Below are positions 1 through 43,848 of a DNA stretch of 64,000 nt, piece after piece (position 1 is the first letter of the stretch; every line of letters begins with the position of its first letter). The notes under the pieces are model-generated. The model did no database searches and was not told where the DNA came from. It saw only the letters and a list, made by a program, of their open reading frames with translations. This DNA is from a virus, in the IMG/VR virus record IMGVR_UViG_3300000235_000002. One strand, written 5' to 3'. The translations under genes and the position numbers were made by a program.

Positions 1-123
1 TGATTCAGATGCGAGGGGATACCATGTAGATCCATCCGAATATTCAACTTTGCCAAGTGTCAATGTCAGTGGTTTGATAGAAGACGAGGAGACACCATTT
101 TTTCGTGTTTTTTTACGCGCCAT
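1..123 (-). CDS. 5' part of the 163-aa fibre tip protein, truncated by window start (full copy at 39103-39594)
   Basis: Same sequence as 39472-39594. Confidence 0.75.
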   Translation of the reverse strand, partial: MARKKTRKNGVSSSSIKPLTLTLGKVEYSDGSTWYPLASES

Positions 124-913
124 TATTGTATCGAATCATCCCTGCTACAAGTAAGGTTGGCCTCTGTGCCGTTGTTCCACCCGGCAGTGTTGTCGAAGCG
201 ATTCCGGGAAGAATAGGATTTGTTGCAAGACTGACCGTTGACGCACTGCCACTCGTCGTCACGGTAATCTGATTTGTTGTTCCTGAAACCGACTCAATAC
301 CGCTTTTAGCAAGCTTCACAAATGTAATGCTGCTCGTACCCACAGTCGTGACAGTGGCTGTCTGCATCCAAGCCGTAACGCCATTCACCGTTCCTGTTGC
401 AACAAAGATTGTATCACCAACAATCATCTGAGCAGCAGAATCAAAATCAGTCGCACGTGTTAAAACCCAAGGGGCGCTTGCTGTTCCGGCATTAGTTACC
501 GTATAGATCCCATTTTGAAAAGCTGTGCTTTGATCTTTGATCAGCACACGCGCGCCTACAGCAGGTGTTATACCATCAATCGTAAAAACCTGATTAGCTG
601 TACTTATCAGTGTTGCCCCAACGCCGGATGTACCATAAAAATAAGTAGCAAATAGACTCGTTGTCGTCGCTGATATACAGGGTTCATTACTAATTTTGGA
701 AATAGCATTAACAACATAACCTTCTGTTGCTAAATAATACCAGTTTGTCCCATCCGTGAATTCCGGTTTTCCTGAGGGTGTTGGAGGGATAGCCTTGAGA
801 CCTAATTTAGTCATAGCTCGAATGCCTTCAGGAGTGGGAACAAGAGGAATTCGGGTGTCTTTTCCCGAAGAATCGTCATCATAAATGTCATCTGTTTTGG
901 AAAGGTAACTCAT
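113..913 (-). CDS. Tail-fibre-like structural protein, middle module (~266 aa; track start 970, likely start MSYLSK at 913)
   Basis: Contains TIDGITPAVGARVLIKDQSTAFQNGIYTV...WVLTRATDFD, a motif I recognise from phage fibre proteins. Thr/Gly-rich; C-terminal GTTAQRP...GMIRYN. Confidence 0.72.
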   Translation of the reverse strand: MSYLSKTDDIYDDDSSGKDTRIPLVPTPEGIRAMTKLGLKAIPPTPSGKPEFTDGTNWYYLATEGYVVNAISKISNEPCISATTTSLFATYFYGTSGVGATLISTANQVFTIDGITPAVGARVLIKDQSTAFQNGIYTVTNAGTASAPWVLTRATDFDSAAQMIVGDTIFVATGTVNGVTAWMQTATVTTVGTSSITFVKLAKSGIESVSGTTNQITVTTSGSASTVSLATNPILPGIASTTLPGGTTAQRPTLLVAGMIRYNNGA

Positions 914-1112
914 TTTTTTTCCTTTAAAAATGGCGGAATTCATTATTAATAAATTACCATAAAACAGCAAAAAAGAAAATTCAAAAATACCAATTTATAC
1001 AATAATTTCTGTAAAAAAACTGTTTATTTGCAAAATGTTAGATCAAAAAATTTTCAAGACACTGTTTTGAAAAATCGTGTCTAACTACTCTCCAAAAAAA
1101 GAACATAATTCG

Positions 1113-2972
1113 TCAAGCAGGAGATGTGTTATATCTTATCATTCCGGAAATCGGTACAGAAGGACGCTGAGATGATGTTCCTTTAGGGATAATCATAGAT
1201 TCATTGCCTGGAAGTACCGCATTATTCTGAAAATATGTCGTGATGGGATTCAACAATCCTCCTGATCCATAAACGGCTCCTTGCAAGGTTATTCCTGTAT
1301 TGAGGAGAGTATTTAGGCTATTTTGCGCACTCGTCGCACTATTGGATGCGTTTGTTGCAGAGGTTTGAGATTGGGAAGCTGAAGAGGCTGCATCAGATGC
1401 TGAAGAAGAGGCACTAGAAGATGAGGAAGAAGCACTAAGGGCTGATGCCGCAGCAGCAACAGCTGATACGCCTGCACCTAAAGCTGATGCTGCCGCTGCC
1501 GCTGCTGATCCACTTGCAGCAGCAGCAGCCCCTGTGGCCTCTGCTGCTGCACCTGTAGCTTCTTCTGCTGCTGCTGTAGCTTCACTTGCGGATGCTGCTG
1601 CCTCCTCAGCTGACGCCGAAGCTTCATTTTTGAATGCTTCCGTTTCTGCCTTGATTTGCTCTAAAGTCTCTTTGGTTGCATAATCTTGATCGCGAATCGC
1701 CACTTCAATGCTACCATCTGCCGCCGCTTTCAAGATTTTTGGGGCAACTCCAACCAGTTGATTTAATGCCTGCGCATTGGGAAGACTATTATGGGACTGT
1801 TTTAAAATGTACGTCGCATCCACGGAAGGCATATTTGTGAAGGCAAGCTGTCGGTCTGTTGAAAGAGGAACATTACCAATATCCGTTAAGACTTGTCCTG
1901 TGGTGCTCACTGTATCGGGCATCACCCAATTGATATTCATCGCCACTGAAGCAGGTGCTTTTAAGCTGACATAGTTCGTATAGCGATGAGCAGGATTATA
2001 ATCATAAAAAATAAACTGACGCCCTTCCACTGTATTCAGAGATAAAACTTGCTGATCTGCTCTTATACTCCCTCCCGCTCCTCCCTGAACTGTAGCTAGT
2101 AGATCACGACACGTCACGGTATTGATTCCTGAAATATTATCGTGATCAGCATCAATATTGATAAGTTGAAGTTTCGATCTTGCAATCACCTTATCCCGTA
2201 AAACGATAGGAATAGTTCCATCCGCATATCCCTCATTGACCAGATCAAGATAATCTGTGCCAGGGGTCGCGTATTGGATGGTTTTTCCTGTTTTCTTCAG
2301 CATGCCATCCTGAAGATTAATCAAAAATTGTGATTTTGGCCATGTCGTTTGCACCAAGGCACTTCCCATGATAAATTCGCCAAGCAAAAAACGAGCATTG
2401 AGTAAAGCAATATCTGCTTCCACACCTAATAAAGCTGTTGATTCTTCAGGCCTATTGCTATCAGTTCCATGCCAAATTTTACCCCCAGAAATGGTTATAG
2501 GAGTAAGTGGGTCAATAGGGTTAGGAATGGTAATCGATGCTGTTCCTAAAGAAGGCAGATTAGATAAATTTATAGTTGCTTGAGGAGTTGCTATATTGTT
2601 GCCATTCCCCACAAAAAGATTTCCTGATGGAAGATAAGTGGATAAATAATCTGTTCCTGGAATAGCAATTTGAATCAGGCCACCTATATTCTTCATCATT
2701 CCGTCGTCAAGATCACTTAGAGCCTGGGCATTAGGAAAAGTAGAAACAGGCGTACTGATCACCACAGGAGCTTCAGAAATAGATTCAACCTGTTGCTGAA
2801 GAGATCTTACATCAATCGTTAAGTCTATTAGCTTGAAAGACGGCGTTGGTCGGTTATGCTTGTCACCGATCCAAACGTAACCACGCTCCAAATCTGGTAG
2901 TTGCAAATGTGATGCCAGAATGCCGGTGACAGGTGAGACGAACGGATCGGTATAGCCAGGAATATATTTCAT
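1113..2972 (-). CDS. Tail-fibre-like structural protein, proximal module (619 aa)
   Basis: Three internal PNAQAL...GTDY-type repeats, an Ala/Ser-rich coiled-coil-like stretch, C-terminal GTSSQRP...GMIRYNT. Start overlaps the patatin stop (TAATG). Confidence 0.65.
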   Translation of the reverse strand: MKYIPGYTDPFVSPVTGILASHLQLPDLERGYVWIGDKHNRPTPSFKLIDLTIDVRSLQQQVESISEAPVVISTPVSTFPNAQALSDLDDGMMKNIGGLIQIAIPGTDYLSTYLPSGNLFVGNGNNIATPQATINLSNLPSLGTASITIPNPIDPLTPITISGGKIWHGTDSNRPEESTALLGVEADIALLNARFLLGEFIMGSALVQTTWPKSQFLINLQDGMLKKTGKTIQYATPGTDYLDLVNEGYADGTIPIVLRDKVIARSKLQLINIDADHDNISGINTVTCRDLLATVQGGAGGSIRADQQVLSLNTVEGRQFIFYDYNPAHRYTNYVSLKAPASVAMNINWVMPDTVSTTGQVLTDIGNVPLSTDRQLAFTNMPSVDATYILKQSHNSLPNAQALNQLVGVAPKILKAAADGSIEVAIRDQDYATKETLEQIKAETEAFKNEASASAEEAAASASEATAAAEEATGAAAEATGAAAAASGSAAAAAASALGAGVSAVAAAASALSASSSSSSASSSASDAASSASQSQTSATNASNSATSAQNSLNTLLNTGITLQGAVYGSGGLLNPITTYFQNNAVLPGNESMIIPKGTSSQRPSVPISGMIRYNTSPA

Positions 2973-4105
2973 TATTCCCTCGCATTAAAATGGGCAATAA
3001 ATTTCTGAATGTTCAACAAATCAGCATCATATTGCGTCATCGCATATTGCTCTAGGTTCGCTAAATTTGCAGCAGAGTAGTTGTCTAAACTCGAATCTTG
3101 TCCCGGTAAAAATTGATACTGAAAGCGATTGAAAAAGATATCGTCATACACATCCGTTGCTTCAAATTCCATCACCTTCGCATTCAGTTCTTGTGGCCCG
3201 GGAATGAAAACGTTATCCATCAGATAGAAAATGTAGTCGACGTTATACGGTGCAATGCTATTCAGATTTTGCGTCAAAAACATCACCTGTTCTTTTTTAT
3301 CCGGATATTTTTTTAAAAGCTTTTGTCTGATTTTTTCGATTTCTTTTTTGGTTTCTTGTTCCAGCTCGGAATCAACGGTTTTCAATTTCAACGTCGTTTC
3401 CGGTATGAAGTCATTGTGCGCAACACCTGTACCGACGGAAAGAATGCAAAAACGTGCAACTCCGGGAAACATCTTCTTAGCTACCGAATAGGCAAGCGTT
3501 ACCGGATTGTTGACATAGACACCGCCGTCAATCATCGTATGGCTATTAACCGATGCAGGCGGAAAGTAAAGCGGCGCAGCACTTGTTGCAAGTCCAACAT
3601 CAACGACGGATCGACCGGCACCGCTCAAGAACGGTTCAAGACCTGAAATGTTGGAAAATATAGCGGCTTCATCTTCATGCGTATCCCACGCAGGAATGAT
3701 CACTTTTGTCAAAAGGGAGGAAAGAGGAAGTGTTTCACCAAAAACGTCTACTAAAGCTGTTCTGAGTGGAGCTTGAGCGTAAAAAGTTGATGGGTAGGTT
3801 GGTAATCCCATGATGACACTGAACTTGTAGACGGATAGCGGCAAGATAGAATTGTAGGCAAAAATACTAGAACCTTTACTTGCAAAAAACTGCCTCATCT
3901 CTTCAGGCGTTTTCCCATAAGCATATCCTAACGCCTGGATGCCACCAATACTTGTACCGGTAATAATATCAAATTCATCGTACAAGCGATTTGGCGCAAT
4001 GCCTGCGTCAAGGCAAAATCGCTTCAGAAAAGTAGCGGAAAAATATCCTCTCATACCGCCACCGTCCAAAGACAAGATCTTCACCGTTTTTGAAGATGAA
4101 TCCAT
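2972..4105 (-). CDS. Patatin-like phospholipase
   Basis: ILSLDGGGMRG glycine loop, GTSIG nucleophile elbow (GxSxG), DGG catalytic Asp motif. Confidence 0.93.
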   Translation of the reverse strand: MDSSSKTVKILSLDGGGMRGYFSATFLKRFCLDAGIAPNRLYDEFDIITGTSIGGIQALGYAYGKTPEEMRQFFASKGSSIFAYNSILPLSVYKFSVIMGLPTYPSTFYAQAPLRTALVDVFGETLPLSSLLTKVIIPAWDTHEDEAAIFSNISGLEPFLSGAGRSVVDVGLATSAAPLYFPPASVNSHTMIDGGVYVNNPVTLAYSVAKKMFPGVARFCILSVGTGVAHNDFIPETTLKLKTVDSELEQETKKEIEKIRQKLLKKYPDKKEQVMFLTQNLNSIAPYNVDYIFYLMDNVFIPGPQELNAKVMEFEATDVYDDIFFNRFQYQFLPGQDSSLDNYSAANLANLEQYAMTQYDADLLNIQKFIAHFNARE

Positions 4106-4107
4106 TG

Positions 4108-4377
4108 TTATCGTCTTGGCCTTCCTGCCTCGATTCTTACACTTCTTCTTTTGCTTTCCAAAGAATTAGAACTACTTTGGTATCTACCTAAACGCCTTTC
4201 CGGAAAATATGACGGCGGATATGCCGCTGCCCCCGGATACGGATGTAGTCGTTCTTCTTCGTCAACAACGTCATCCACAACTGTTCTTGCCTCTTCTTTA
4301 AAAAAAACAGCCGGAAGACATCCAACTAGGAAAGATCCTGCTAAAAAGATACATGTTACCAATTTTAAGTTACTCAT
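4108..4377 (-). CDS. Small predicted lipoprotein (89 aa)
   Basis: Basic N-terminus, hydrophobic stretch and LVGC lipobox (Cys20); packed tightly between terL and patatin. Confidence 0.62.
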   Translation of the reverse strand: MSNLKLVTCIFLAGSFLVGCLPAVFFKEEARTVVDDVVDEEERLHPYPGAAAYPPSYFPERRLGRYQSSSNSLESKRRSVRIEAGRPRR

Positions 4378-4386
4378 TTTTTCCTC

Positions 4387-5814
4387 TTAAATTAAACCTG
4401 AATTTGCCCATTTTGGGGTAGTATCGTAAGCAAACTCCACAGCTGTTCTTGCTTGCGCTAAACCATTCAGCGCATAGAACATCGCATCCAAGCAATGATC
4501 ATTCTTCTTAATGATGATGCCGTTCTCATCTCTGGCGTATTGCCGAAACTCATTCACCGCATGCCGACAACCAACACCTTTTTCACTATGGAATATCTTG
4601 AATCTGTCCCCACGAACCCGTTCATAGATTTCATCAATCACCGCTTCTTTGGCATTGTTCGTTTTGTGAGCTTTGACTAGACGAAGCCCCGACTTAATCT
4701 GCAGAAAATCTAACGTCTTTTCTTTTGTGTGCATGTTTTCACCGGCACCTGCGGGATCAACCATGCCCGTACACCAGTCAGGTACCATCTGAAGGATATT
4801 GTTTGCATGTTCGGTCGGTGTCGCATTACTCAGCTTGTAATCTCGTACCACATAGACAATATCCGAATCACGGTCATGAGCAAGAAGTACACAACCCCAT
4901 GTCCCTCCTGAGGAGGCCGATGGATCAAGCCCGTAAACGCAAGCGAAATGCTTTGGAATCTCAAACGGTTCAACGAACAATTCCGATTCCATCATCGTGA
5001 AAACCTTGCCTTGGCCAAACACAGGCACGCCGTGTTCACGCGCTTCTAATTGCCATTTTGGAATGGATTTTCTAAGGTGATCGATCGTTTCCTGTTTTAA
5101 ATACGGATTGTCTTGCCAAGATGCAGTAATATAGAAACGGCCGTCCTTGACTTCACCTTCCGCACCGTTGTCCAGAAAGTGCGCAATCAAATCGTCCTTG
5201 CCTTTTTCTGGCCACATACTCGCCACCAGAAACGTCTTCTCCTTGTCAAACTCCGAGATCCGAACCAACGCTTCTTGATAGACACGAAAGTTCGGCAACT
5301 CATCCATATGGATAAAATCCGCCTTCACACCTTGCCAAGACGACTCACCTTGTTGAAAAGCCTTAAACTTGAGTTCTGACCTGCCACCGGACACATGGTT
5401 GATCCACACCGTATCCCAAGCTCCTGCCACGTTGGTGTGTGTTTTGTCGGCAAGGTAGCTTTGGTGCAATATCGGTGGCATCGTGCCGTCCAAATCACCT
5501 AAAAACATCTTTCGTTGAAGAATATCGCGCGTATCTTTGAGGCTCACGGAAGAAGAAATGGCATTGATCGGACGTGAAAAACGATACCCCTTCCACCAAG
5601 GCGGATAAACACCTGTGAGGTGAAATGCCAGTTCCATGCAAACGGCATTCGTCTTGCCTGTTCTATTGCCGCCAAGAAACAGACGTTCTTTTGCCAAAAG
5701 ACTGGCTTCATGAAATTGTGCTTGCTTCGGTGTCGGCTTGTAAAATAAAAAGCTTTTTTCCGCGAAAGCCGTCAACTGATCAACTGAAAAACCAAGATGG
5801 GAAACGCCGCTCAA
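4387..5814 (-). CDS. terL: Terminase large subunit
   Basis: Walker A GGNRTGKT, Walker B IHMDE, nuclease motifs GLDPS and DHCLDA; TTG start. Confidence 0.93.
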   Translation of the reverse strand: MSGVSHLGFSVDQLTAFAEKSFLFYKPTPKQAQFHEASLLAKERLFLGGNRTGKTNAVCMELAFHLTGVYPPWWKGYRFSRPINAISSSVSLKDTRDILQRKMFLGDLDGTMPPILHQSYLADKTHTNVAGAWDTVWINHVSGGRSELKFKAFQQGESSWQGVKADFIHMDELPNFRVYQEALVRISEFDKEKTFLVASMWPEKGKDDLIAHFLDNGAEGEVKDGRFYITASWQDNPYLKQETIDHLRKSIPKWQLEAREHGVPVFGQGKVFTMMESELFVEPFEIPKHFACVYGLDPSASSGGTWGCVLLAHDRDSDIVYVVRDYKLSNATPTEHANNILQMVPDWCTGMVDPAGAGENMHTKEKTLDFLQIKSGLRLVKAHKTNNAKEAVIDEIYERVRGDRFKIFHSEKGVGCRHAVNEFRQYARDENGIIIKKNDHCLDAMFYALNGLAQARTAVEFAYDTTPKWANSGLI

Positions 5815-6043
5815 ACAAACAGTCCTTTTTACTCAAAAAAGGGCGATGGAATTCGCTCCTTCATTCTTTGAATATACCAAAATTCTGCTGAAAAAACAAC
5901 GATTTGAACAAAAAAAAGAGAAAATCTGCAAGGTATAACAGATCTTCTCTTTTTTGGAATTTGTGAAAAGTTTTAAAAAATAATGAAATTATAACAAACA
6001 AATATCTACCAGAATTAACGCGAAAAGCCAAGCATGAAAATCA

Positions 6044-6919
6044 TCAGCTATTTTTCAGCAGCTCTTCAATCTTGTCCATTGACAAACCGGTAGCTTCAAC
6101 GATCACAGGAGACGCGACACCTTGATTCAACAGTGCCATTGCCACCTGCAATATGCCTTTTTCGATACCTTTTTCGATACCTTTTTCGATACCTTCATCA
6201 TACCGCTGATCCATCGACGCTTTGTATGATCCTGCATACTTCTCCGCCTGATCATAGGTTAACAGCTCTTCCTCATTCCAGGAGAAGCGGTTCAACTCTT
6301 GATACACACGCTCAATGATCTCATCAGAGCCGATAATCGACGCTAAATCCTCTTCCCTCGTCTCTTCCGCGTGCAAGAAGAAGTAGCTCCATTTTTCGAC
6401 CATGTTTGATAGATCGTCTATCCGCTTTTTGAACTTCGGCAATTCCAAAAATGTAAATGAAAAATCCTTCAAATCGTTGGACTGGGTCACTCTATCCAAA
6501 ATGATATGATCGGACTTATACGCCTCATTCTTCGGAAACATGATGAAGTCTGCTATCGCAATGAAGATGATCTCTTTCAAATCCGCATAAGCACCGCCGA
6601 TTTTCATCTGGGAACTATAGGCTTTGGCGGCATAATACTGCGCTCGTTTCTCAAAGCCCTTTTCCTTGGCAACCTGTAGCTCAACAATGTACTGATGACC
6701 GTGTTCATCCCGACACAACACATCAACGATACTCGTCTTCTGCGCCGCCGTTTCAGGATCTTGAACGGTTTTAAGAAACGTCACGTCCGTAATCGGGTGT
6801 CTCTCTCTGAACGTTACCATGTCATTCAAAAAGTGAATCAGAATATCTTTGTTTTTTTCAGTCCCAAAGATCTTGCGAAAACAAACGTCATTCTTTGGGT
6901 CAAGAAATTTAGACAACAT
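6044..6919 (-). CDS. Rpn-family recombination-promoting nuclease / PD-(D/E)XK putative transposase (track start 6961)
   Basis: LDPKNDVCFRKIFG N-terminus, IVDVLC...YIVELQ, KRAQYYAAKAY, C-terminal EKGI repeats. Confidence 0.9.
   Translation of the reverse strand: MLSKFLDPKNDVCFRKIFGTEKNKDILIHFLNDMVTFRERHPITDVTFLKTVQDPETAAQKTSIVDVLCRDEHGHQYIVELQVAKEKGFEKRAQYYAAKAYSSQMKIGGAYADLKEIIFIAIADFIMFPKNEAYKSDHIILDRVTQSNDLKDFSFTFLELPKFKKRIDDLSNMVEKWSYFFLHAEETREEDLASIIGSDEIIERVYQELNRFSWNEEELLTYDQAEKYAGSYKASMDQRYDEGIEKGIEKGIEKGILQVAMALLNQGVASPVIVEATGLSMDKIEELLKNS
6156..6195 (-). repeat. 12-bp tandem repeat (3 copies) encoding EKGI in Rpn
   Basis: cctttttcgata x3 on the plus strand. Confidence 0.85.
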
Positions 6920-7111
6920 GAAATTAACCTTTCTGCAATTGATTTTTCCAAACAATAGCATGAACGGATTCCAAGAAGAAAGACGATCCTGTTATCCACA
7001 GAATCTGTGAGTAAGTTTGTGAATACGTATAGAGTCGACATACGTAACTCCACCCGGTTCCGCCGGAATCAACGATTTGCTCAAGAAATAGGCAGATAAA
7101 GTTCTTAAATT

Positions 7112-7157
7112 AAAAAAAGCTGCTAATTCCGATGGTTCAGAATTAGCAGCTTTTTTT
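7112..7157. terminator. Bidirectional rho-independent terminator downstream of the OMP gene
   Basis: AAAAAAAGCTGCTAATTC-10 nt-GAATTAGCAGCTTTTTTT perfect inverted repeat with T-tracts on both strands. Confidence 0.85.
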
Positions 7158-7324
7158 ACTTACTAAAGTCTCTTCAATTTAACACAATCTAAGTCATTGT
7201 GCAAAAAGAATATTTTTATTTTGAAGCAATTGTCACGCAAAGAAACGGACTAGCTTTCAATGATTCTAATGATCTTTTTTTCATGATTGACTCCTGTTGT
7301 TTCATATTGACATTTAAATTCTTA

Positions 7325-8116
7325 TCACATTTTGGCTGAAATGCCAACAAGCAAACCTTTTTGTGAACCAAACGTCTTGTTGTGAGAAATGTATGGCTTC
7401 CCAAAAAGTGATACATCTTTTGTCAAATCGTAAGCCACTTTAAATGATGCTGATTTTGTATCCAATTTAAAAGATGCGTTCTTCGTGTTGCGGCTGTGTT
7501 CGTAATGAATCATCGGTGTCACGGAAAGAGGAGAACCGGAGGAAAGTTTCATAGCCGTACCTAAATCAAACCCTACTAACACATTGTCAAGCGGGTTTTT
7601 GCTAACAAAAGCATTGGCTAATACAGAAAAGCATGGATTCACTTTAAAGGCGTTATCCGAAAAAAGAGTCATAGAAAAGCCACCAAGGTCTATTTCTTCT
7701 TTTCCTGATACGTAACCTTTAGAGTTGATTATTCCTGCCCTAATACCTGTTACTGTTGACCAAACCTGACCGGCGTATTTTCCAAATACACCCACTTCTT
7801 GTTTATTAAAAGAAAAACGCTTGTCTCCAGATCTTTGGCTTTGAATTTTTTTTTCAAGATTCATTTTGTGAGAAAGTGAGAACCCAAAAGCATCGTGACC
7901 GATATATTCCAAATATACTTTTGGCATGTGATTCGTTTTGGTTTTTATACCGGATTGAGTGGGGTATTTGTTTTGTGACATCTCGTTAGATATTGTTGCT
8001 ACAAAGTTTCTGTGGTCATTTTTAGCTTCAATACCTTTGTTGATTTCTGCGTGATTATCAACAGTGGCAAAAGCAGTACAGGCCATCAAGGCTAAAAGTG
8101 TTGCTGTTTTAATCAA
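7325..8116 (-). CDS. Secreted, probable outer-membrane beta-barrel protein (263 aa)
   Basis: TTG start after GGAG RBS; signal peptide ending AFA; alternating hydrophobic beta-strand pattern; C-terminal LLVGISAKM strand. Confidence 0.6.
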   Translation of the reverse strand: MIKTATLLALMACTAFATVDNHAEINKGIEAKNDHRNFVATISNEMSQNKYPTQSGIKTKTNHMPKVYLEYIGHDAFGFSLSHKMNLEKKIQSQRSGDKRFSFNKQEVGVFGKYAGQVWSTVTGIRAGIINSKGYVSGKEEIDLGGFSMTLFSDNAFKVNPCFSVLANAFVSKNPLDNVLVGFDLGTAMKLSSGSPLSVTPMIHYEHSRNTKNASFKLDTKSASFKVAYDLTKDVSLFGKPYISHNKTFGSQKGLLVGISAKM

Positions 8117-8271
8117 TTTAATTTCTCCGTGTTGGATTGATGAAAAACCTATCTTATAAAATTATTCGAGAATTGTCTGTAACACTTAAGTCACAGTGAG
8201 AAAGTTTCTCTATCGTGTTACCTATATCAATATAAAAATATTTTTTTGATTGGATGGATGCCCCACCCCCC

Positions 8272-8826
8272 CTAGCCCCCCCTTTTCAAAACTCTGTGGA
8301 TGGTCATGTGAGAAACAGCATATTTATTAGCTAGTTGCGGTAATGAAAAATGTTCTTCTTCCCGTAACCGCTTTATGTCATTCTCCTGATCCGATGTCAG
8401 AATAGCCTTACGTCCAAAAGATACGCCTTTCTCAAGAGCCTTCTTGATGCCTTCCATCTGCCTTGACCTCCTTATATCATTCTCAAACTCTGCAAACGAT
8501 CCAATGATATTGAACATCAAGCGACCCTCTGAGGTGGTTGTATCTATTGACTGATCAAGGACTTTAAGCTGCGCCTGTTTCTTCTGGATTCTTTTGGAGA
8601 TGATCAATAAATCTTGCATGGAACGAGCGAGTCTATCTAATTTGGTGACCACAAGAACATCTCCTTCCCGTAGTGTTCGTAAAGCTGTTTCTAATTCATT
8701 CCTTTTTTGAGAAAGCGCGGAGATTTTTTCTTCGAAGATTTCATCACAACTTTCCTGTTGAAGTTTTTCTTTCTGGACTTCCAAGGATTGTCCGTAACTA
8801 CTAACACGTGCATAACCTATTTTCAT
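8272..8826 (-). CDS. Serine recombinase (resolvase/invertase family) with C-terminal HTH
   Basis: MKIGYARVSS catalytic motif, VTKLDRLARS, GVSFGRK arm, HTH tail. Confidence 0.95.
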   Translation of the reverse strand: MKIGYARVSSYGQSLEVQKEKLQQESCDEIFEEKISALSQKRNELETALRTLREGDVLVVTKLDRLARSMQDLLIISKRIQKKQAQLKVLDQSIDTTTSEGRLMFNIIGSFAEFENDIRRSRQMEGIKKALEKGVSFGRKAILTSDQENDIKRLREEEHFSLPQLANKYAVSHMTIHRVLKRGG

Positions 8827-8835
8827 TTTCTACTC

Positions 8836-8930
8836 CATAACAAAATATATAGACTTTATGATAAAGCTATTATGTTATGGTTTTTGTTATGCGTCAAGAG
8901 GGTTTATCAAAATTTATACTTTTTGTTATG
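8836..8930. promoter_or_regulatory. Candidate res site / resolvase promoter region
   Basis: CATAACAAAA (8836-8845) with two inverse copies TTTTGTTATG (8882-8891, 8921-8930) directly upstream of the resolvase, the usual position of res. Confidence 0.45.
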
Positions 8931-9300
8931 ATTCATCATCTGTCACGTTGATCACGGCTGGTGTTCTGTTCTTAGCACGCATCAACAGCTGCCAAAGATC
9001 TGAATGCTCATCTTGGGACATGTTATTTAGCAGCGGTGCCATGTGAACGTTTAGATTGTTTTGTGTGGTGTTCTTTTCAACGGGTGCGTAAGTACCGGCT
9101 TTAGGATAGAACATTTCCATCGCAAGCTTAATTGCCCATGGTAGTTCTTCTTTGAGAGCTTTGTTCAGTAGCAGCTTGGCTACACTTTCAATGCTTTTCT
9201 CGTTCTTCTTGCAAAACTCTTGCACCATTTCAGATCGAGAATCAATTCTCTTTCTCGGCCTACCGGCGGGATTAGCATTATTACCAGGTTTGAATACCAT
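8926..9300 (-). CDS. terS: Probable terminase small subunit (track start 9327)
   Basis: N-terminal FKPGNNANPAGRP motif typical of DUF5681-type small terminases; size; same strand as and upstream of terL. Confidence 0.65.
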   Translation of the reverse strand: MVFKPGNNANPAGRPRKRIDSRSEMVQEFCKKNEKSIESVAKLLLNKALKEELPWAIKLAMEMFYPKAGTYAPVEKNTTQNNLNVHMAPLLNNMSQDEHSDLWQLLMRAKNRTPAVINVTDDES

Positions 9301-9637
9301 TGGCACATCTCTTTTATTAAAAATCAATCCATCGTGAGCGTTTTCTATCCTTCATCACTATTCCAAACAAGAATCTCTAGCATTTCTCATCCCTGCACTC
9401 ACCAACTTCGATGAGTACGTTCAAACGCTTACCGCCGAACACATCTTTAGCAAATCCGCCATTTCTACGCATCATCAACACTACATTTCCAGAGAACGCA
9501 ACATCATGACAACGAGATTGACAACGAACAAGCAACTAACAAATTCAATAGTTTCCAAGAAAGAACACTCACGATCGTTTCTCGATTAATCATAGCACAT
9601 TTCATGCTTTCAAAGAAGGACAATGAGACTCAAAAAG

Positions 9638-11796: not shown

Positions 11797-11934
11797 ATGG
11801 GAATTGTAGTTGTGGGTTCAGTAGCCAGAACGCGGCTTAGAGAAACGGCTGAGTTTTTAAATGGTAAAAAAGAAGGAGAGAAAAAATTATTTTTTGATGG
11901 AGATTTTCATGTCGATTTTTCAAAAACCAAGTAA
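11797..11934 (+). pseudogene. Relic fragment of a second MFS paralogue
   Basis: Reads MGIVVVGSVARTRLRETAEF..., matching GIAVVGSMARMKLRETPEF of the upstream MFS. Confidence 0.65.
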
Positions 11935-12544
11935 TTTAGTTTTTTTTCTTGATGCCTTCATCGCATATGCCAACTTTTTTTACGGGAAAGAGATGGCGAA
12001 AAAAATATACGTTTACTACATGGACAATTCAGAGGTAGTTTCTACAAACATCAAGCACAATAGTATTGGATCTGGTGAATTTTTCATTGAAACTCGCAAT
12101 ATCATTCAAATGATTGAATGCAACATTTTGAAAGAAAAAGAAAGTATATACTTCATGGAATATCCGTATATTAACTCACCAGAAACCTGTGTCCAATACA
12201 ATGACTTTCTCAAAATTAAACACATATTTTATTCTTCGAGAGGTGAGCCTATTTTTGATGGCGCGCATCCAACACGACTATTTTTTTCTAAATCTGTTTT
12301 GAATTATTTGACAAAAGAAGAGGATTTTTCGTTAAGACTAAATGATTTCGTGAGAAGAAAAATGGAATTGAAAAGATTATTGTACGACAATGAAGCAGAA
12401 ATCATTGATCAATACAAAAAACCATTCATAGAATTGAGTAGAAATCAATTTCGTGAGTGCATTTCCGTTTTTTTGAAACGGCCAGATAGTCAAAATCTAA
12501 TCGACAACTTGTGGCAAGATGTAAGAATAGACAGTTTTGACTAA
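11909..12544 (+). CDS. Hypothetical protein (~211 aa; track start 11861)
   Basis: Long AT-rich ORF; GGAG RBS ahead of ATG 11909; no recognised motif. Confidence 0.6.
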   Translation: MSIFQKPSNLVFFLDAFIAYANFFYGKEMAKKIYVYYMDNSEVVSTNIKHNSIGSGEFFIETRNIIQMIECNILKEKESIYFMEYPYINSPETCVQYNDFLKIKHIFYSSRGEPIFDGAHPTRLFFSKSVLNYLTKEEDFSLRLNDFVRRKMELKRLLYDNEAEIIDQYKKPFIELSRNQFRECISVFLKRPDSQNLIDNLWQDVRIDSFD

Positions 12545-17487: not shown

Positions 17488-18198
17488 ATGGAAAAAACGT
17501 TAAGACTCATACGCGAGTTGGAAAAGCTAACAACCGTTACTAATCCACGCGGCTATATAGGCTGCTCTGTCATTGGTCATGAGTGTGATCGCTATATCTG
17601 GCTAAACAAGTATGGAAAGCTCACATATGAGATTCCATTTAGGCTTGGAAGGATTTTTGAACGCGGCAATCTTGAGGAGGAGAGAATTTTCTCTTCCATC
17701 AAGAAACTTTCTTGCGTTGAACTGATCTCAACGCAACTATCTTTCGCGAGCAGTATTTTGCAAGGAAGTTGTGACGGTGTCATCAAAGACAAACAAGGGA
17801 ATCAATACATTCTGGAACTCAAGACCATTAATGACGGCAACTTCAAAAGACTCAAGAAACACGGTCTTTCCAAAAGTAACGTAACGTACTGGTCTCAGTG
17901 TCAGGCTTACATGCATCTTGCTCACCAAACAAACCAGATAGAAAATATCCGTCTATGGTCGCCCGTTCAAGGCTTGATCTTCCTAGTCGTCAACAAGAAC
18001 GATGAATCAATGTATGAGGAATTCATTGAATACGATCCTATTTTTGGTGAAGGACTTGTTGCTAAGGCAAATCGGATTGACGGGCTAGAAGAAATGCCGG
18101 ACGGAATATTCTCTGTCGAGAAGAAGCCGCAAGCCTGCTTCACCTGCTCATTCCACAAACATTGCTATGGAGAAACAGATGCTCAAACCAATAAGTAA
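17488..18198 (+). CDS. Cas4-like / PD-(D/E)XK phage exonuclease
   Basis: N-terminal Cys, CDG, LELKT, QCQAY and C-terminal CxxCxxxxxC (Fe-S cluster pattern). Confidence 0.82.
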   Translation: MEKTLRLIRELEKLTTVTNPRGYIGCSVIGHECDRYIWLNKYGKLTYEIPFRLGRIFERGNLEEERIFSSIKKLSCVELISTQLSFASSILQGSCDGVIKDKQGNQYILELKTINDGNFKRLKKHGLSKSNVTYWSQCQAYMHLAHQTNQIENIRLWSPVQGLIFLVVNKNDESMYEEFIEYDPIFGEGLVAKANRIDGLEEMPDGIFSVEKKPQACFTCSFHKHCYGETDAQTNK

Positions 18199-18358
18199 AG
18201 TTTGGCAAATCGTCCTGGAGAAGTTCCTTATAAAATATCCTAAACATTCAAGATCATTAGAGGTGAATCGCGGGTATAAAACAAGAAATCGACTAAGAAG
18301 AAATAAACAAAAGAGATGGCAAAAAATCAAAGAAACGATAGAGAAATACGATGTCTAA
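18179..18358 (+). CDS. Small basic hypothetical protein
   Basis: GGAG RBS before ATG 18179; overlaps both neighbours. Confidence 0.4.
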   Translation: MLKPISKVWQIVLEKFLIKYPKHSRSLEVNRGYKTRNRLRRNKQKRWQKIKETIEKYDV

Positions 18359-18824
18359 AATGAACATACTTGCACTTGATCTCGGCACAAAAACAGGCTG
18401 GGCACTTTCAACCAACGGTTTGATTTTGTTTGGTAGAGAAAACTTCCAAGCAGATAGATTTTCCGGTGGTGGCATGCGATTCTTGAAGTTTCAACGATGG
18501 TTAGATAATATCCACACCATTCGTGAAGGTATCACAGAGATCTGCTTCGAGGAAGTAAGGCGGCACCTTGGTACCGATGCAGCACATGTTTACGGCGGTA
18601 TGCTTGCAGTGTTAACATCATGGTGTGAAGATCACAAAATTCCTTATCAAGGAGTGCCGGTTAAAACAATAAAAAAACACATGACCGACAATGGTGGTGC
18701 ATCCAAGAAAGAAGTGATTGCTGCGGTCAGAGAAAAGGGACATGAGACAAAAGACGATAATGAAGCAGATGCAATCGCTTTGCTGTACTGGAGACTCAAT
18801 AGTGAAAGCGAGTCTTTCCAATGA
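18351..18824 (+). CDS. RuvC-like Holliday junction resolvase
   Basis: ILALDLGTKTGWA, ICFEEV, DDNEADAIALL catalytic motifs. Confidence 0.85.
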   Translation: MSKMNILALDLGTKTGWALSTNGLILFGRENFQADRFSGGGMRFLKFQRWLDNIHTIREGITEICFEEVRRHLGTDAAHVYGGMLAVLTSWCEDHKIPYQGVPVKTIKKHMTDNGGASKKEVIAAVREKGHETKDDNEADAIALLYWRLNSESESFQ

Positions 18825-23419: not shown

Positions 23420-23680
23420 GAAAGCGCAACAGACTAGAGTTCAAATCTCCAGCCTGCTGCTAACCACCACAGAATAGACAGGAACCCGTGATGGCTAAAG
23501 AAATATTAAGTCAACTGATGTCGTTAAAGCAAGTGCTTTTCCGCCAAGAAATCCTTTTTAGATGCTGTACTTTCATCGAATTTACAAGCTACTTTTTCTG
23601 GCCTGATTTTCCACCTTTTCTTTTGTCTCCGCGTGATTTTTTCTGTGGTATCATTCCATCCATCAACAGGAAATAATCCC

Positions 23681-24184: not shown

Positions 24185-24442
24185 ATGGACTGGACACAAA
24201 CAATCGCTTTAGGTGGTACTTTAATAGGTTCCATGGTTGGGATGGTCGTATTCTTATATAAGATTAACGATAAATCTATTCATGAATGGCGGTCAGAGCA
24301 TAAGGATCAGATGCAGAAGAGTGATTCACGGTTTGAGAAAGCAATGAGCATAATTGATGCTCGTTTAGAAAAGAACGAAGCACACTGGCGGGAGATGTTC
24401 ATGTACATGAATGACCGTATTGATAAAGTTAGGGAGAAGTGA
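24185..24442 (+). CDS. Membrane-anchored coiled-coil protein (85 aa)
   Basis: GGAG RBS, N-terminal TM helix, charged helical tail. Confidence 0.65.
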   Translation: MDWTQTIALGGTLIGSMVGMVVFLYKINDKSIHEWRSEHKDQMQKSDSRFEKAMSIIDARLEKNEAHWREMFMYMNDRIDKVREK

Positions 24443-24443
24443 G

Positions 24444-24611
24444 ATGGACTGGAAAACAATCTTGGGAACAATAATTAACTGTATATCGATAGTGTTACTT
24501 TTATTGGCATTCATTCAACTGTACTTTATTGAAAGAAGAAACTAATCACATTGGCGAGAAATGTTTCGGTACATGAACGATCGTTTGGATAGAAGCGTGG
24601 AGAAGAAATGA
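24444..24611 (+). pseudogene. Degenerate tandem paralogue of the 85-aa gene with an in-frame TAA
   Basis: MDWKTILG...ERRN*SHWREMFRYMNDRLD versus MDWTQTI...EKNEAHWREMFMYMNDRID. Confidence 0.65.
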
Positions 24612-34250: not shown

Positions 34251-34260
34251 TTTTTTCTCC

Positions 34261-39102: not shown

Positions 39103-39594
39103 TTAAGTAATATTCGTTAATTGAAAGTTATTAACCACTTGGACTAAATAGAGTTTCCCAATTTCACCGGAAATTTTGAAAATGAGACAATCAACGGCAT
39201 TAGCTGTACTCGATAGAGGCATCAATGTTGATGTATTCCCTGCCCTGTAAATATTAGATATATTTAGAGATCTGTTGCCATTAGCATCTTGCTTTGCAAA
39301 TAACGTCAACGTTGATGGTCCGGCTGTATTCCAGCTAATATTCGTGATGACGCAATTTCCGGAAAGCGTTAGAAAAGCAACATTGCCAAGTGTTGCATTC
39401 CAACTCATAGAACTCGTAAAATTAAGTGTCTGGTATTTATCTAATCTTTGATCAGTGGTGTTTTCTACCCATGATTCAGATGCGAGGGGATACCATGTAG
39501 ATCCATCCGAATATTCAACTTTGCCAAGTGTCAATGTCAGTGGTTTGATAGAAGACGAGGAGACACCATTTTTTCGTGTTTTTTTACGCGCCAT
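39103..39594 (-). CDS. Tail-fibre tip / receptor-binding-like module (163 aa)
   Basis: N-terminal GKVEYSDGSTWYPLASE half-motif; C-terminal beta domain (LTLSGN...QDANGNRSL...STANAVD) resembling phage fibre ends. Confidence 0.62.
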   Translation of the reverse strand: MARKKTRKNGVSSSSIKPLTLTLGKVEYSDGSTWYPLASESWVENTTDQRLDKYQTLNFTSSMSWNATLGNVAFLTLSGNCVITNISWNTAGPSTLTLFAKQDANGNRSLNISNIYRAGNTSTLMPLSSTANAVDCLIFKISGEIGKLYLVQVVNNFQLTNIT

Positions 39595-40583: not shown

Positions 40584-42443
40584 TCAAGCAGGAGATGTGT
40601 TATATCTTATCATTCCGGAAATCGGTACAGAAGGACGCTGAGATGATGTTCCTTTAGGGATAATCATAGATTCATTGCCTGGAAGTACCGCATTATTCTG
40701 AAAATATGTCGTGATGGGATTCAACAATCCTCCTGATCCATAAACGGCTCCTTGCAAGGTTATTCCTGTATTGAGGAGAGTATTTAGGCTATTTTGCGCA
40801 CTCGTCGCACTATTGGATGCGTTTGTTGCAGAGGTTTGAGATTGGGAAGCTGAAGAGGCTGCATCAGATGCTGAAGAAGAGGCACTAGAAGATGAGGAAG
40901 AAGCACTAAGGGCTGATGCCGCAGCAGCAACAGCTGATACGCCTGCACCTAAAGCTGATGCTGCCGCTGCCGCTGCTGATCCACTTGCAGCAGCAGCAGC
41001 CCCTGTGGCCTCTGCTGCTGCACCTGTAGCTTCTTCTGCTGCTGCTGTAGCTTCACTTGCGGATGCTGCTGCCTCCTCAGCTGACGCCGAAGCTTCATTT
41101 TTGAATGCTTCCGTTTCTGCCTTGATTTGCTCTAAAGTCTCTTTGGTTGCATAATCTTGATCGCGAATCGCCACTTCAATGCTACCATCTGCCGCCGCTT
41201 TCAAGATTTTTGGGGCAACTCCAACCAGTTGATTTAATGCCTGCGCATTGGGAAGACTATTATGGGACTGTTTTAAAATGTACGTCGCATCCACGGAAGG
41301 CATATTTGTGAAGGCAAGCTGTCGGTCTGTTGAAAGAGGAACATTACCAATATCCGTTAAGACTTGTCCTGTGGTGCTCACTGTATCGGGCATCACCCAA
41401 TTGATATTCATCGCCACTGAAGCAGGTGCTTTTAAGCTGACATAGTTCGTATAGCGATGAGCAGGATTATAATCATAAAAAATAAACTGACGCCCTTCCA
41501 CTGTATTCAGAGATAAAACTTGCTGATCTGCTCTTATACTCCCTCCCGCTCCTCCCTGAACTGTAGCTAGTAGATCACGACACGTCACGGTATTGATTCC
41601 TGAAATATTATCGTGATCAGCATCAATATTGATAAGTTGAAGTTTCGATCTTGCAATCACCTTATCCCGTAAAACGATAGGAATAGTTCCATCCGCATAT
41701 CCCTCATTGACCAGATCAAGATAATCTGTGCCAGGGGTCGCGTATTGGATGGTTTTTCCTGTTTTCTTCAGCATGCCATCCTGAAGATTAATCAAAAATT
41801 GTGATTTTGGCCATGTCGTTTGCACCAAGGCACTTCCCATGATAAATTCGCCAAGCAAAAAACGAGCATTGAGTAAAGCAATATCTGCTTCCACACCTAA
41901 TAAAGCTGTTGATTCTTCAGGCCTATTGCTATCAGTTCCATGCCAAATTTTACCCCCAGAAATGGTTATAGGAGTAAGTGGGTCAATAGGGTTAGGAATG
42001 GTAATCGATGCTGTTCCTAAAGAAGGCAGATTAGATAAATTTATAGTTGCTTGAGGAGTTGCTATATTGTTGCCATTCCCCACAAAAAGATTTCCTGATG
42101 GAAGATAAGTGGATAAATAATCTGTTCCTGGAATAGCAATTTGAATCAGGCCACCTATATTCTTCATCATTCCGTCGTCAAGATCACTTAGAGCCTGGGC
42201 ATTAGGAAAAGTAGAAACAGGCGTACTGATCACCACAGGAGCTTCAGAAATAGATTCAACCTGTTGCTGAAGAGATCTTACATCAATCGTTAAGTCTATT
42301 AGCTTGAAAGACGGCGTTGGTCGGTTATGCTTGTCACCGATCCAAACGTAACCACGCTCCAAATCTGGTAGTTGCAAATGTGATGCCAGAATGCCGGTGA
42401 CAGGTGAGACGAACGGATCGGTATAGCCAGGAATATATTTCAT
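40584..42443 (-). CDS. Copy 2: fibre proximal module
   Basis: Same as 1113-2972. Confidence 0.65.
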   Translation of the reverse strand: MKYIPGYTDPFVSPVTGILASHLQLPDLERGYVWIGDKHNRPTPSFKLIDLTIDVRSLQQQVESISEAPVVISTPVSTFPNAQALSDLDDGMMKNIGGLIQIAIPGTDYLSTYLPSGNLFVGNGNNIATPQATINLSNLPSLGTASITIPNPIDPLTPITISGGKIWHGTDSNRPEESTALLGVEADIALLNARFLLGEFIMGSALVQTTWPKSQFLINLQDGMLKKTGKTIQYATPGTDYLDLVNEGYADGTIPIVLRDKVIARSKLQLINIDADHDNISGINTVTCRDLLATVQGGAGGSIRADQQVLSLNTVEGRQFIFYDYNPAHRYTNYVSLKAPASVAMNINWVMPDTVSTTGQVLTDIGNVPLSTDRQLAFTNMPSVDATYILKQSHNSLPNAQALNQLVGVAPKILKAAADGSIEVAIRDQDYATKETLEQIKAETEAFKNEASASAEEAAASASEATAAAEEATGAAAEATGAAAAASGSAAAAAASALGAGVSAVAAAASALSASSSSSSASSSASDAASSASQSQTSATNASNSATSAQNSLNTLLNTGITLQGAVYGSGGLLNPITTYFQNNAVLPGNESMIIPKGTSSQRPSVPISGMIRYNTSPA

Positions 42444-43576
42444 TATTCCCTCGCATTAAAATGGGCAATAAATTTCTGAATGTTCAACAAATCAGCATCA
42501 TATTGCGTCATCGCATATTGCTCTAGGTTCGCTAAATTTGCAGCAGAGTAGTTGTCTAAACTCGAATCTTGTCCCGGTAAAAATTGATACTGAAAGCGAT
42601 TGAAAAAGATATCGTCATACACATCCGTTGCTTCAAATTCCATCACCTTCGCATTCAGTTCTTGTGGCCCGGGAATGAAAACGTTATCCATCAGATAGAA
42701 AATGTAGTCGACGTTATACGGTGCAATGCTATTCAGATTTTGCGTCAAAAACATCACCTGTTCTTTTTTATCCGGATATTTTTTTAAAAGCTTTTGTCTG
42801 ATTTTTTCGATTTCTTTTTTGGTTTCTTGTTCCAGCTCGGAATCAACGGTTTTCAATTTCAACGTCGTTTCCGGTATGAAGTCATTGTGCGCAACACCTG
42901 TACCGACGGAAAGAATGCAAAAACGTGCAACTCCGGGAAACATCTTCTTAGCTACCGAATAGGCAAGCGTTACCGGATTGTTGACATAGACACCGCCGTC
43001 AATCATCGTATGGCTATTAACCGATGCAGGCGGAAAGTAAAGCGGCGCAGCACTTGTTGCAAGTCCAACATCAACGACGGATCGACCGGCACCGCTCAAG
43101 AACGGTTCAAGACCTGAAATGTTGGAAAATATAGCGGCTTCATCTTCATGCGTATCCCACGCAGGAATGATCACTTTTGTCAAAAGGGAGGAAAGAGGAA
43201 GTGTTTCACCAAAAACGTCTACTAAAGCTGTTCTGAGTGGAGCTTGAGCGTAAAAAGTTGATGGGTAGGTTGGTAATCCCATGATGACACTGAACTTGTA
43301 GACGGATAGCGGCAAGATAGAATTGTAGGCAAAAATACTAGAACCTTTACTTGCAAAAAACTGCCTCATCTCTTCAGGCGTTTTCCCATAAGCATATCCT
43401 AACGCCTGGATGCCACCAATACTTGTACCGGTAATAATATCAAATTCATCGTACAAGCGATTTGGCGCAATGCCTGCGTCAAGGCAAAATCGCTTCAGAA
43501 AAGTAGCGGAAAAATATCCTCTCATACCGCCACCGTCCAAAGACAAGATCTTCACCGTTTTTGAAGATGAATCCAT
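42443..43576 (-). CDS. Copy 2: patatin-like phospholipase
   Basis: Same as 2972-4105. Confidence 0.93.
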   Translation of the reverse strand: MDSSSKTVKILSLDGGGMRGYFSATFLKRFCLDAGIAPNRLYDEFDIITGTSIGGIQALGYAYGKTPEEMRQFFASKGSSIFAYNSILPLSVYKFSVIMGLPTYPSTFYAQAPLRTALVDVFGETLPLSSLLTKVIIPAWDTHEDEAAIFSNISGLEPFLSGAGRSVVDVGLATSAAPLYFPPASVNSHTMIDGGVYVNNPVTLAYSVAKKMFPGVARFCILSVGTGVAHNDFIPETTLKLKTVDSELEQETKKEIEKIRQKLLKKYPDKKEQVMFLTQNLNSIAPYNVDYIFYLMDNVFIPGPQELNAKVMEFEATDVYDDIFFNRFQYQFLPGQDSSLDNYSAANLANLEQYAMTQYDADLLNIQKFIAHFNARE

Positions 43577-43578
43577 TG

Positions 43579-43848
43579 TTATCGTCTTGGCCTTCCTGCC
43601 TCGATTCTTACACTTCTTCTTTTGCTTTCCAAAGAATTAGAACTACTTTGGTATCTACCTAAACGCCTTTCCGGAAAATATGACGGCGGATATGCCGCTG
43701 CCCCCGGATACGGATGTAGTCGTTCTTCTTCGTCAACAACGTCATCCACAACTGTTCTTGCCTCTTCTTTAAAAAAAACAGCCGGAAGACATCCAACTAG
43801 GAAAGATCCTGCTAAAAAGATACATGTTACCAATTTTAAGTTACTCAT
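43579..43848 (-). CDS. Copy 2: small lipoprotein
   Basis: Same as 4108-4377. Confidence 0.62.
   Translation of the reverse strand: MSNLKLVTCIFLAGSFLVGCLPAVFFKEEARTVVDDVVDEEERLHPYPGAAAYPPSYFPERRLGRYQSSSNSLESKRRSVRIEAGRPRR

Follow-up and report, generated by a model that had tools for sequence, protein, structure and literature searches.

Within 64,000 nucleotides of the IMG/VR virus record IMGVR_UViG_3300000235_000002 (hereafter the window), a gene for a patatin-like phospholipase lies between the gene of a small lipoprotein, which follows the large terminase gene terL, and a tail-fibre gene. We propose that this patatin is a particle-associated phospholipase of the tail module with a periplasmic partner, a reading to which we assign a probability of roughly 40%, and we consider it more likely that the enzyme aids the crossing of membranes by particles than that it stands in for a missing cell-wall lysin. 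Four observations argue for a function in adsorption or entry rather than for a dedicated lysis enzyme, namely, the embedding of the gene in the tail module, its movement together with the fibre gene, the presence of canonical lysis genes alongside it in relatives, and the lack of an export signal in its product. An earlier note on this DNA had suggested either a non-canonical, lipid-directed lysis or vacuole-escape module or a virion-borne phospholipase coupled to the fibre. A k-mer self-comparison of the window gave one exact self-period of 39,471 bp, which indicates a circular or concatemeric unit read 1.6 times; by its sequence, this unit is a small podovirus-like phage-plasmid.

Linkage of the patatin gene to the fibre gene

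The order terL, lipobox protein, patatin and fibre, together with the spacing given for it in the earlier note, agrees with the coordinates of the open reading frames (ORFs; Table 1) and with the junctions. The stop codon TAA of terL is followed by GAGGAAAAA, 9 nt that read as a Shine-Dalgarno-like sequence, and then by the ATG of the lipoprotein; the stop codon TAA of the lipoprotein is separated from the ATG of the patatin by the 2-nt gap CA, and the patatin stop overlaps the fibre start as TAATG. The patatin is translationally coupled on both sides within the late structural operon. A promoter and terminator scan of positions 1 to 9600 gave counts no higher than the shuffled expectation, and a separate transcription unit for the patatin is without support.

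Full-length relatives of the patatin were found in approximately 370 IMG/VR stretches, and the representative library held 64 clusters at E ≤1e-30. Conservation was counted in 80 patatin-selected loci out of the approximately 370, with sufficient downstream sequence in 71 (loci and genomes are given below by our own handles, such as L002 or G001). The motifs GGGx[RK]G, GxSxG and DGG were kept in all 80 fetched loci. The gene is neither missing from most relatives nor degraded in its motifs, outcomes that would have spoken against the earlier proposal, and the encoded enzymes are predicted to be active. Of the 71 loci, at least 49 had a homologue of the fibre N-terminus beginning no more than about 60 nt from the patatin stop, in most cases overlapping it by 1 to 13 nt, and further adjacent fibres that were missed by BLAST, for example in L103, were visible on inspection. 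The order patatin–fibre was constant in three genome positions: after terL (most loci), after the portal gene (for example, L140, L161 and L198–L216), and after the ejection-like genes (L004, L118 and L119). Fibre genes flanked the patatin on both sides in phages of a more distant group and on a Megaira plasmid; full-length relatives also occurred beside tail genes on Megaira plasmids and on one Paracaedimonas plasmid. A phospholipase coupled to the fibre, as suggested for the window, fits the strongest pattern in these data, since synteny, translational coupling and joint movement between the three positions extend across the clade; a virion-borne location is predicted.

When relatives were selected by their portal, without use of the patatin in the choice, the pair was present in nearly every locus with adequate flanking sequence. 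Five portal-selected records lacked the patatin, all of them partial (13–55% complete), so their lack of it allows no conclusion. Patatin and portal identities in near relatives were 74 and 78%, 68 and 72%, and 64 and 64%, respectively, and this parallel divergence indicates that the patatin behaves as a core gene and not as a moron. In the nearest relative, G001, the patatin was 98% identical and the fibre N-terminus 54%, suggesting that the fibre beside the patatin recombines freely. The patatin was always a stand-alone gene: neither the 113 loci compared nor the top 150 representative library matches contained a fusion with a fibre.

These data bear on the possibility that the patatin, the lipoprotein and an outer-membrane-protein-like (OMP-like) protein of the same operon are lysogenic-conversion cargo, that is, morons that benefit the carrier in a eukaryotic host, like the plasmid-borne Pat1 and Pat2 of Rickettsia, which are secreted effectors for phagosome escape (PMC11077975). 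Such a role would suit a plasmid-like Rep_3 replicon with further cargo of host type (a ProP-like MFS transporter, an Rpn nuclease and the OMP-like gene), the frequency of patatins on Rickettsia and Megaira plasmids, and a position beside fibre genes, where morons often sit. We give it a slim chance: a promoter or terminator signal of the patatin's own was not above chance, the gene is coupled in translation on both sides in a late structural operon, nearly all relatives have kept it, with divergence at the rate of a core gene, and its product lacks both a secretion signal and an effector-type C-terminal domain.

As a separate observation, two records, IMGVR_UViG_3300042333_000684 (L178/L181) and IMGVR_UViG_3300034050_001176 (L182/L196), each contained two different portal loci, with patatin–fibre between terL and portal in one and terL abutting the portal in the other. 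Each may be an assembly in which two related phages were joined, as a chimera or by concatenation.

Motifs and fold of the patatin

The patatin matched PF01734 over residues 11 to 205 with 100.7 bits against a cut-off of 27.7. The catalytic motifs, described earlier as intact, were invariant in an alignment of 18 sequences (A1) as G15-G-G-x-R19-G20, G50-T-S52-I-G54 and D193-G-G195, and the oxyanion loop, Ser52 and Asp193 are all present. The AlphaFold2 (AF2) model had a pLDDT of 87 and showed a compact single domain, in which the Lys/Glu-rich insert noticed after the DGG motif appeared as a helical hairpin (residues 247–279, with helices at 247–266 and 268–279) that several homologues lack. 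No signal peptide, transmembrane domain (TMD) or extra domain was found in the sequence or in the model.

In a profile search of the PDB sequences (hmmsearch), CapV came first with E values of 4e-45 to 9e-43, plant patatin scored 2e-25, and ExoU and VipD gave no match. Foldseek likewise ranked CapV and CapE best, followed by patatin-17 (top E 9e-23, TMq 0.72, TMt 0.81), whereas VipD and ExoU reached a TMq of only 0.30 to 0.39 against the model. CapV and CapE (PDB 8ZR9, 9KH6 and 9IOM) are therefore the closest solved homologues (E ~4e-45, TM up to 0.81 of the target) and share with the window protein a compact single-domain patatin with a Ser–Asp dyad. The Lys/Glu-rich hairpin and the C-terminal third (residues ~240–377) are specific to the phage family, and the latter gave no sequence alignment to CapV. 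On the evidence of sequence and model, we class the protein with the CapV/CapE structural type, as a phospholipase A of one domain with its catalytic residues in place and a predicted activity. The C-terminal cofactor-binding or membrane-localisation domain and the secretion signal of the ExoU, VipD and Pat1/Pat2 effectors were not found in it.

CapV and CapE have a CD-NTase neighbour and are switched on by cyclic nucleotides, whereas the window patatin has no such partner and sits in a phage tail module. Because neither a CD-NTase nor any other component of CBASS (cyclic oligonucleotide-based antiphage signalling system) was found in any ORF of the 39.5-kb unit, the locus is not a CBASS system. 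A captured CapV-like effector serving abortive infection, competitor exclusion or as a cyclic-nucleotide decoy would account for CapV and CapE being the best matches in both sequence and structure; it would leave unexplained the family-specific residues ~240–377 and the constant position in the fibre module, which has no parallel in defence islands, and with the missing partner genes this origin appears extremely improbable. The structural link between phage patatins and CBASS effectors nevertheless bears on the origin of defence phospholipases.

A scan of genome contigs with the patatin alignment returned, among the matches listed, only generic patatins of approximately 30 to 39% identity, which gave no pointer to a host. 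Patatin homologues were also seen in a Sphagnum assembly and in Cysteiniphilum.

Relationship to MAnkyphage and phage WO

The window unit has the features of a clade that includes dozens of other IMG/VR records and MAnkyphage_25.80, a phage of Megaira polyxenophila (OP381185.1): a P22-type portal, an adaptor of the SU10/T7 gp11 type, and the shared order terL, patatin, fibre, portal, capsid, adaptor and nozzle. MAnkyphage, the host of which is an intracellular alphaproteobacterium, is circular with approximately 38 kb, and its gene order is collinear with that of the window, running through a DUF5681 protein, resolvase, terminase, patatin, tail fibre, portal, capsid, gp11/gp12-like tail proteins, acetyltransferase and three large proteins. 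Its patatin is 27% identical over 98% of the length and its p640 is 32% identical (terL, Table 1). MAnkyphage differs from the window in carrying a PF00959 lysozyme with a flanking one-TMD protein and an overlapping Rz/Rz1-like pair, in having no lipoprotein in the terminase–patatin gap, and in its ankyrin genes and replication module; conversely, the window carries the Rep_3 replicon and the MFS, Rpn and OMP-like cargo. The source study of MAnkyphage is reportedly that of George et al. (2023, Curr Biol).

In the phage collection, tblastn matched MAnkyphage over 98% of the patatin, at features annotated 'patatin' and 'tail Fiber'; the other matches, six Wolbachia WO records and two unannotated 'uncultured phage' records, covered the N-terminal domain only. 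WO resembles the window in having a patatin beside tail genes, an intracellular alphaproteobacterial host (probable for the window), no recognisable endolysin and a one-TMD coiled-coil protein. It is a P2-like, myovirus-type prophage, however, and its 309-aa patatin is 28% identical to that of the window over the N-terminal 229 residues. The holin-like gene of WO stands close to the patatin and next to an ankyrin gene, whereas the candidate membrane-protein gene of the window (85 aa; see below) is 20 kb away and not homologous, and the window has neither an ankyrin gene nor a PLD gene. The parallel with WO drawn in the earlier note is thus sound as an analogy and does not extend to orthology, since the patatins share only generic domain similarity.

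The deposited MAnkyphage sequence already has a patatin at this position, and a patatin-based lytic cassette beside the tail module has been proposed for WO by Bordenstein and Bordenstein (2022, PMC9203015). Our literature searches, which did not include the MAnkyphage paper, found no description of the size of the clade, the near-universal patatin–fibre linkage, the coexistence with canonical cassettes, the CapV-type fold or the recurrent lipoprotein. How phages of intracellular bacteria exit and enter across eukaryotic and bacterial membranes is an open question that has so far been argued mainly from WO. With the present clade, a second set of genomes becomes available that is much larger and simpler; in it the patatin comes near to being a core gene and is physically linked to fibre genes, and the natural contrasts within the clade (with or without a canonical lysis cassette, with or without the lipoprotein) make roles in entry, lysis and egress separable.

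Lysis genes in the unit and in relatives

Searches against Pfam and PHROGs matched no ORF of at least 80 aa in the 39.5-kb unit to a lysin, holin or spanin family, in line with the earlier failure to recognise a muramidase, amidase or peptidase, and no bona fide endolysin emerged among the hypothetical ORFs. The PHROG search was likewise empty for the lipoprotein and for most ORFs of small membrane proteins. Among 12 near-complete relatives, 7 had none of the seven lysin families tried; G001 and four complete members of those seven were also negative for 11 muralytic or peptidoglycan-binding families, although the GH108 control was silent and the negative for that family carries no weight. The absence of a recognisable lysin in the sub-clade of the window is a real, unexplained feature.

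By contrast, a PF00959 lysozyme was present in 10 of 35 patatin-bearing records, including MAnkyphage and a complete record with a patatin 75% identical to that of the window, and one more record had a GH19 enzyme. The cassette of MAnkyphage (L163) consists of a 77-aa one-TMD protein, a T4-type lysozyme and an overlapping pair of an N-terminal-TMD coiled-coil protein and a lipobox protein. The same overlapping pair, with PHROG matches to 'Rz-like spanin' down to 5.6e-6, occurs in L165, L166 and L168, which have full cassettes. Since full canonical cassettes coexist with the patatin, its conserved role is not the replacement of such a cassette. Of the earlier proposal, the lack of a recognisable muralytic enzyme is borne out for the unit and G001, and the inference of a non-canonical lysis module is weakened by the relatives.

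One rival reading is lysis directed at lipids, the first option of the earlier note. In this scheme, the late patatin degrades the inner membrane from within, as CapV does and in parallel with the published WO hypothesis, or, in a variant, it attacks the phospholipids in the inner leaflet of the outer membrane once the inner membrane has been breached. It would replace the holin, the spanin or both, an endolysin would be dispensable in a thin-walled endosymbiont, and the lipoprotein would be an outer-membrane helper or regulator. The empty searches of the unit and of the five relatives named above, the killing by CapV and CapE, the closest solved homologues, through digestion of their own cell's membrane, and the cassette proposed for WO (PMC9203015) are what this scheme can draw on. 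We hold it to be rather unlikely, though a live rival, because complete cassettes beside the patatin in MAnkyphage and several relatives imply a different conserved function, and the patatin sits in the fibre module and not beside the lysozyme or spanins where those occur. The lipoprotein, moreover, has neither an i-spanin partner nor a match to a spanin hidden Markov model (HMM), and an ungated cytoplasmic phospholipase A acting through the late phase would kill the cell before assembly, with no gate evident.

The mycobacteriophage LysB is a lipolytic enzyme that finishes lysis by detachment of the outer membrane; it sits beside LysA in the lysis cassette. LysB has no sequence relationship to the window proteins and serves as an analogy only.

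The one protein of the unit with a holin- or i-spanin-like architecture, of 85 aa (Table 1), had no Pfam or PHROG match, reached an E value of only 13 with the holin-like protein of WO, and could not be aligned with the Rz-like proteins of the relatives. It begins with MDW, and the short TMD ORF that follows it has an in-frame MDW at residue 12, which may be the true start. G001 contains two diverged copies of the 85-aa gene with 49% and 44% identity (L222:16575-16712 and 18189-18407).

Two further ORFs have a size compatible with a lysin and may or may not encode one: that at 22556–23287 had no match in the ESM Atlas, and that at 23633–24121 was modelled with seven helices at an AF2 pLDDT of 52, too low for use. 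A 'lytic transglycosylase' annotated in MAnkyphage between the capsid and adaptor genes (L085:35566-36069) had no support from Pfam; the window protein at this position (33891–34301) is unrelated, beta-rich and decoration-protein-like. In the record with the 75% identical patatin (IMGVR_UViG_3300014720_003399, L221:3920-6003), a soluble T4-type lysozyme is encoded with no obvious holin or spanin beside it, and a 531-aa protein with an N-terminal TMD follows.

The upstream lipoprotein

The lipoprotein reads as an n-region MSNLK, a hydrophobic core and the lipobox L-V-G-C20, and its mature part of 70 aa comprises an acidic helix, a Pro/Tyr-rich stretch and a basic, Arg-rich tail. Copies in L002 and L003 are 92 to 98% identical, and the core LFWEEEVRxVVDDxVxEEE was kept with the lipobox in the relatives whose patatins are 74% and 68% identical. 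In at least three more lineages, non-homologous or very diverged acidic lipoproteins occupy the same slot. In total, a lipobox ORF abutted the patatin in 18 of 114 loci, with 9 distinct sequences from at least five lineages. The controls gave 0/60 for the portal, 0/47 for terL, 0/41 for the major capsid protein, 0/38 for the adaptor and 1/85 for the fibre; upstream of the nozzle, a lipobox ORF was present in 6 of 36 loci, all one repeated sequence. The association of lipoprotein and patatin is therefore real but accessory.

The earlier note had brought up o-spanins as small Pro-rich outer-membrane lipoproteins. The lipobox would agree with such a role, whereas the remaining evidence does not: its gene is flanked by terL and the patatin, with no i-spanin embedded, overlapping or adjacent, PHROG gave no spanin match, and its prevalence was low (18/114). 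The Rz/Rz1-like pairs of the relatives were recognised by PHROG and are unrelated to the window lipoprotein. With no partner gene and no family match, while the spanins of relatives are recognisable, the lipoprotein is unlike an o-spanin.

A proposed particle-associated phospholipase

Our proposal starts from the observed anatomy of the locus, the integrity of the catalytic motifs, the fold class, the conservation, the fibre linkage and the coexistence with canonical cassettes. Almost throughout a large clade of phages and phage-plasmids that resemble podoviruses and have a P22-type portal and an SU10-type adaptor, the patatin gene stands alone within the tail-fibre module; the known or presumed hosts of this clade are intracellular alphaproteobacteria, and MAnkyphage is its only named member. 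In the proposed mechanism, the enzyme, which has no export signal and is coupled in translation to the fibre gene, would be made late in the cytoplasm and would most likely leave the cell with or attached to the particle. At adsorption or entry, it may attack phospholipid, presumably in the envelope of the target bacterium or in a membrane of host origin that surrounds this bacterium. As an accessory, periplasm-facing partner in some lineages, the lipoprotein would most plausibly shield the carrier cell as an immunity or superinfection-exclusion factor. In the sub-clade with no recognisable endolysin or spanin, the patatin may also contribute to release.

A particle-associated phospholipase would give a periplasmic lipoprotein something to do, namely, to protect the carrier cell from the incoming enzyme. 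By analogy, the layout of a lipase and an adjacent periplasmic lipoprotein resembles the Tle/Tli effector–immunity pairs of the type VI secretion system (T6SS). Tle lipases, encoded in secretion-system loci, are delivered to the periplasm and neutralised by adjacent periplasmic or lipoprotein immunity proteins; Tle and Tli have no sequence relationship to the window proteins.

Several points weigh against this proposal. We infer the place of the patatin in the particle from sequence data, no virion-attachment domain is recognisable in it, and no fusion with the fibre was seen in the 113 loci or the top 150 library matches. Adjacency in compact phage genomes can stem from shared late expression alone. 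CapV and CapE act from the cytoplasm on their own inner membrane, a mechanism that fits lysis, and the unit and at least 7 of the 12 near-complete relatives have no known lysin family, leaving room for a lytic function. Finally, the lipoprotein is absent from approximately 84% of the loci.

A more specific form of the proposal is tentative, and we consider it doubtful: throughout the clade, a CapV-like, free-standing and particle-borne entry enzyme would be docked on the fibre apparatus and cut phospholipid barriers, that is, the bacterial outer membrane or the host-derived membrane round the symbiont, and the lipoprotein would immunise the carrier in some lineages. If true, this would be a phage counterpart of the T6SS lipase/immunity pairs and of the parvovirus capsid phospholipase A2.

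Gene content of the unit and probable host

The minus strand encodes a P22-type portal (PF16510, E 6e-77), a major head protein, an SU10-type adaptor (PF24175, E 6e-13), a large nozzle-like protein, a beta-helical fibre, a GNAT protein and three large ejection-like proteins. The plus strand carries replication and DNA genes (primase/helicase, AAA_24 ATPase, exonuclease, RuvC-like resolvase and DNA methylase) and genes for a Rep_3 initiator, a ProQ-like protein, a ProP-like MFS transporter, an Rpn/PDDEXK_2 nuclease and a serine invertase. Coordinates of the features discussed here are collected in Table 1.

Table 1 Features of the window around the patatin gene and elsewhere in the unit (aa, amino acids; TMD, transmembrane domain)
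Feature	Position	Strand	Evidence or remark
terL, large terminase	4387..5814	-	Pfam Terminase_6N/6C, PHROG terL; 38% identity to MAnkyphage terminase
Small lipoprotein, 89 aa	4108..4377	-	Lipobox LVGC with Cys20; no Pfam or PHROG match
Patatin-like phospholipase, 377 aa, stand-alone, CapV/CapE type	2972..4105	-	PF01734, E 1.5e-28
Fibre gene, 619 aa	1113..2972	-	Weak PHROG tail-fibre matches; N-terminal ~200 residues are the part conserved beside the patatin
Second fibre segment, 285 aa	113..970	-	PHROG tail fibre/virion structural families; kept downstream of the first fibre in relatives
Third fibre-associated ORF, 163 aa, before the portal (reached round the circle)	39103..39594	-	Same-position homologues in L002, L086 and L087
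Second copy of patatin and lipoprotein	42443..43848	-	From the window wrapping the 39,471-bp unit
Protein of 85 aa, N-terminal TMD and charged coiled-coil tail	24185..24442	+	Only holin-/i-spanin-like architecture; 20 kb from patatin
Short ORF with one TMD, candidate membrane protein, overlaps the end of the 85-aa gene	24411..24545	+	No PHROG match
Signal-peptide protein, 263 aa, envelope cargo, late operon	7325..8116	-	81-88% identical copies in L003 and G001; no family match

The nearest named relatives of the MFS and Rpn cargo were proteins of Ca. Paracaedibacter symbiosus (66%), Ca. Bealeia (64%) and Holosporales or other alphaproteobacterial metagenome-assembled genomes, and megablast of 20 kb of the window against phages and plasmids gave zero matches. 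Judging from this cargo similarity, the host is probably a protist endosymbiont of the Holosporales/Paracaedibacter type.

Such a host suggests one further role, that of a soluble egress factor, which would be freed when the bacterium lyses inside the protist and would open the symbiosome, the vacuole or the host cell membrane, giving particles access to further bacteria. Where hosts are known or presumed they are intracellular (Megaira for MAnkyphage and the Megaira plasmids), the closest relatives of the window cargo agree with this, ankyrin-repeat genes occur in 3 of the 12 near-complete relatives, coexisting canonical cassettes are compatible with such a factor, and the same role has been proposed for the WO patatin (PMC9203015). 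A compact fold of the CapV/CapE/plant-patatin type that lacks the cofactor-binding C-terminal domains of ExoU and VipD (TM 0.30–0.39) makes the idea quite unlikely in our view, as do the tight coupling to the fibre and the periplasmic lipoprotein, both of which it leaves unexplained; most of the approximately 370 metagenomic relatives, moreover, have no known host.

The 263-aa signal-peptide protein is, by its sequence features, probably an outer-membrane beta-barrel. Further OMP-like proteins that have a signal peptide and the character of a beta-barrel are found repeatedly in the clade (L124:5742-6425, L165:713-1381, L167:1902-2570, L170:524-1198 and L172:2236-2883), where their genes often adjoin the lysozyme cassette or stand just upstream of the lipoprotein–patatin pair. 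The similarity of the window protein to them was marginal (E 0.01).

The record that carries the MFS protein of the window is 158,067 bp long, approximately four units, and may be a four-fold concatemer at source. The small GNAT acetyltransferase (29395–29754, minus strand) lies between the beta-helical fibre and ejection-like genes, a position that it also takes in MAnkyphage and several IMG/VR relatives, making it another conserved enzyme within the structural operon. The all-helical protein at 23633–24121 (plus strand) gave weak death-fold leads (DED/CARD/PYRIN) with an ESM Atlas score of 0.80, which is below the reliable range, and the low-GC ORFs at 24608–24910 and 11861–12544 resemble it in style.

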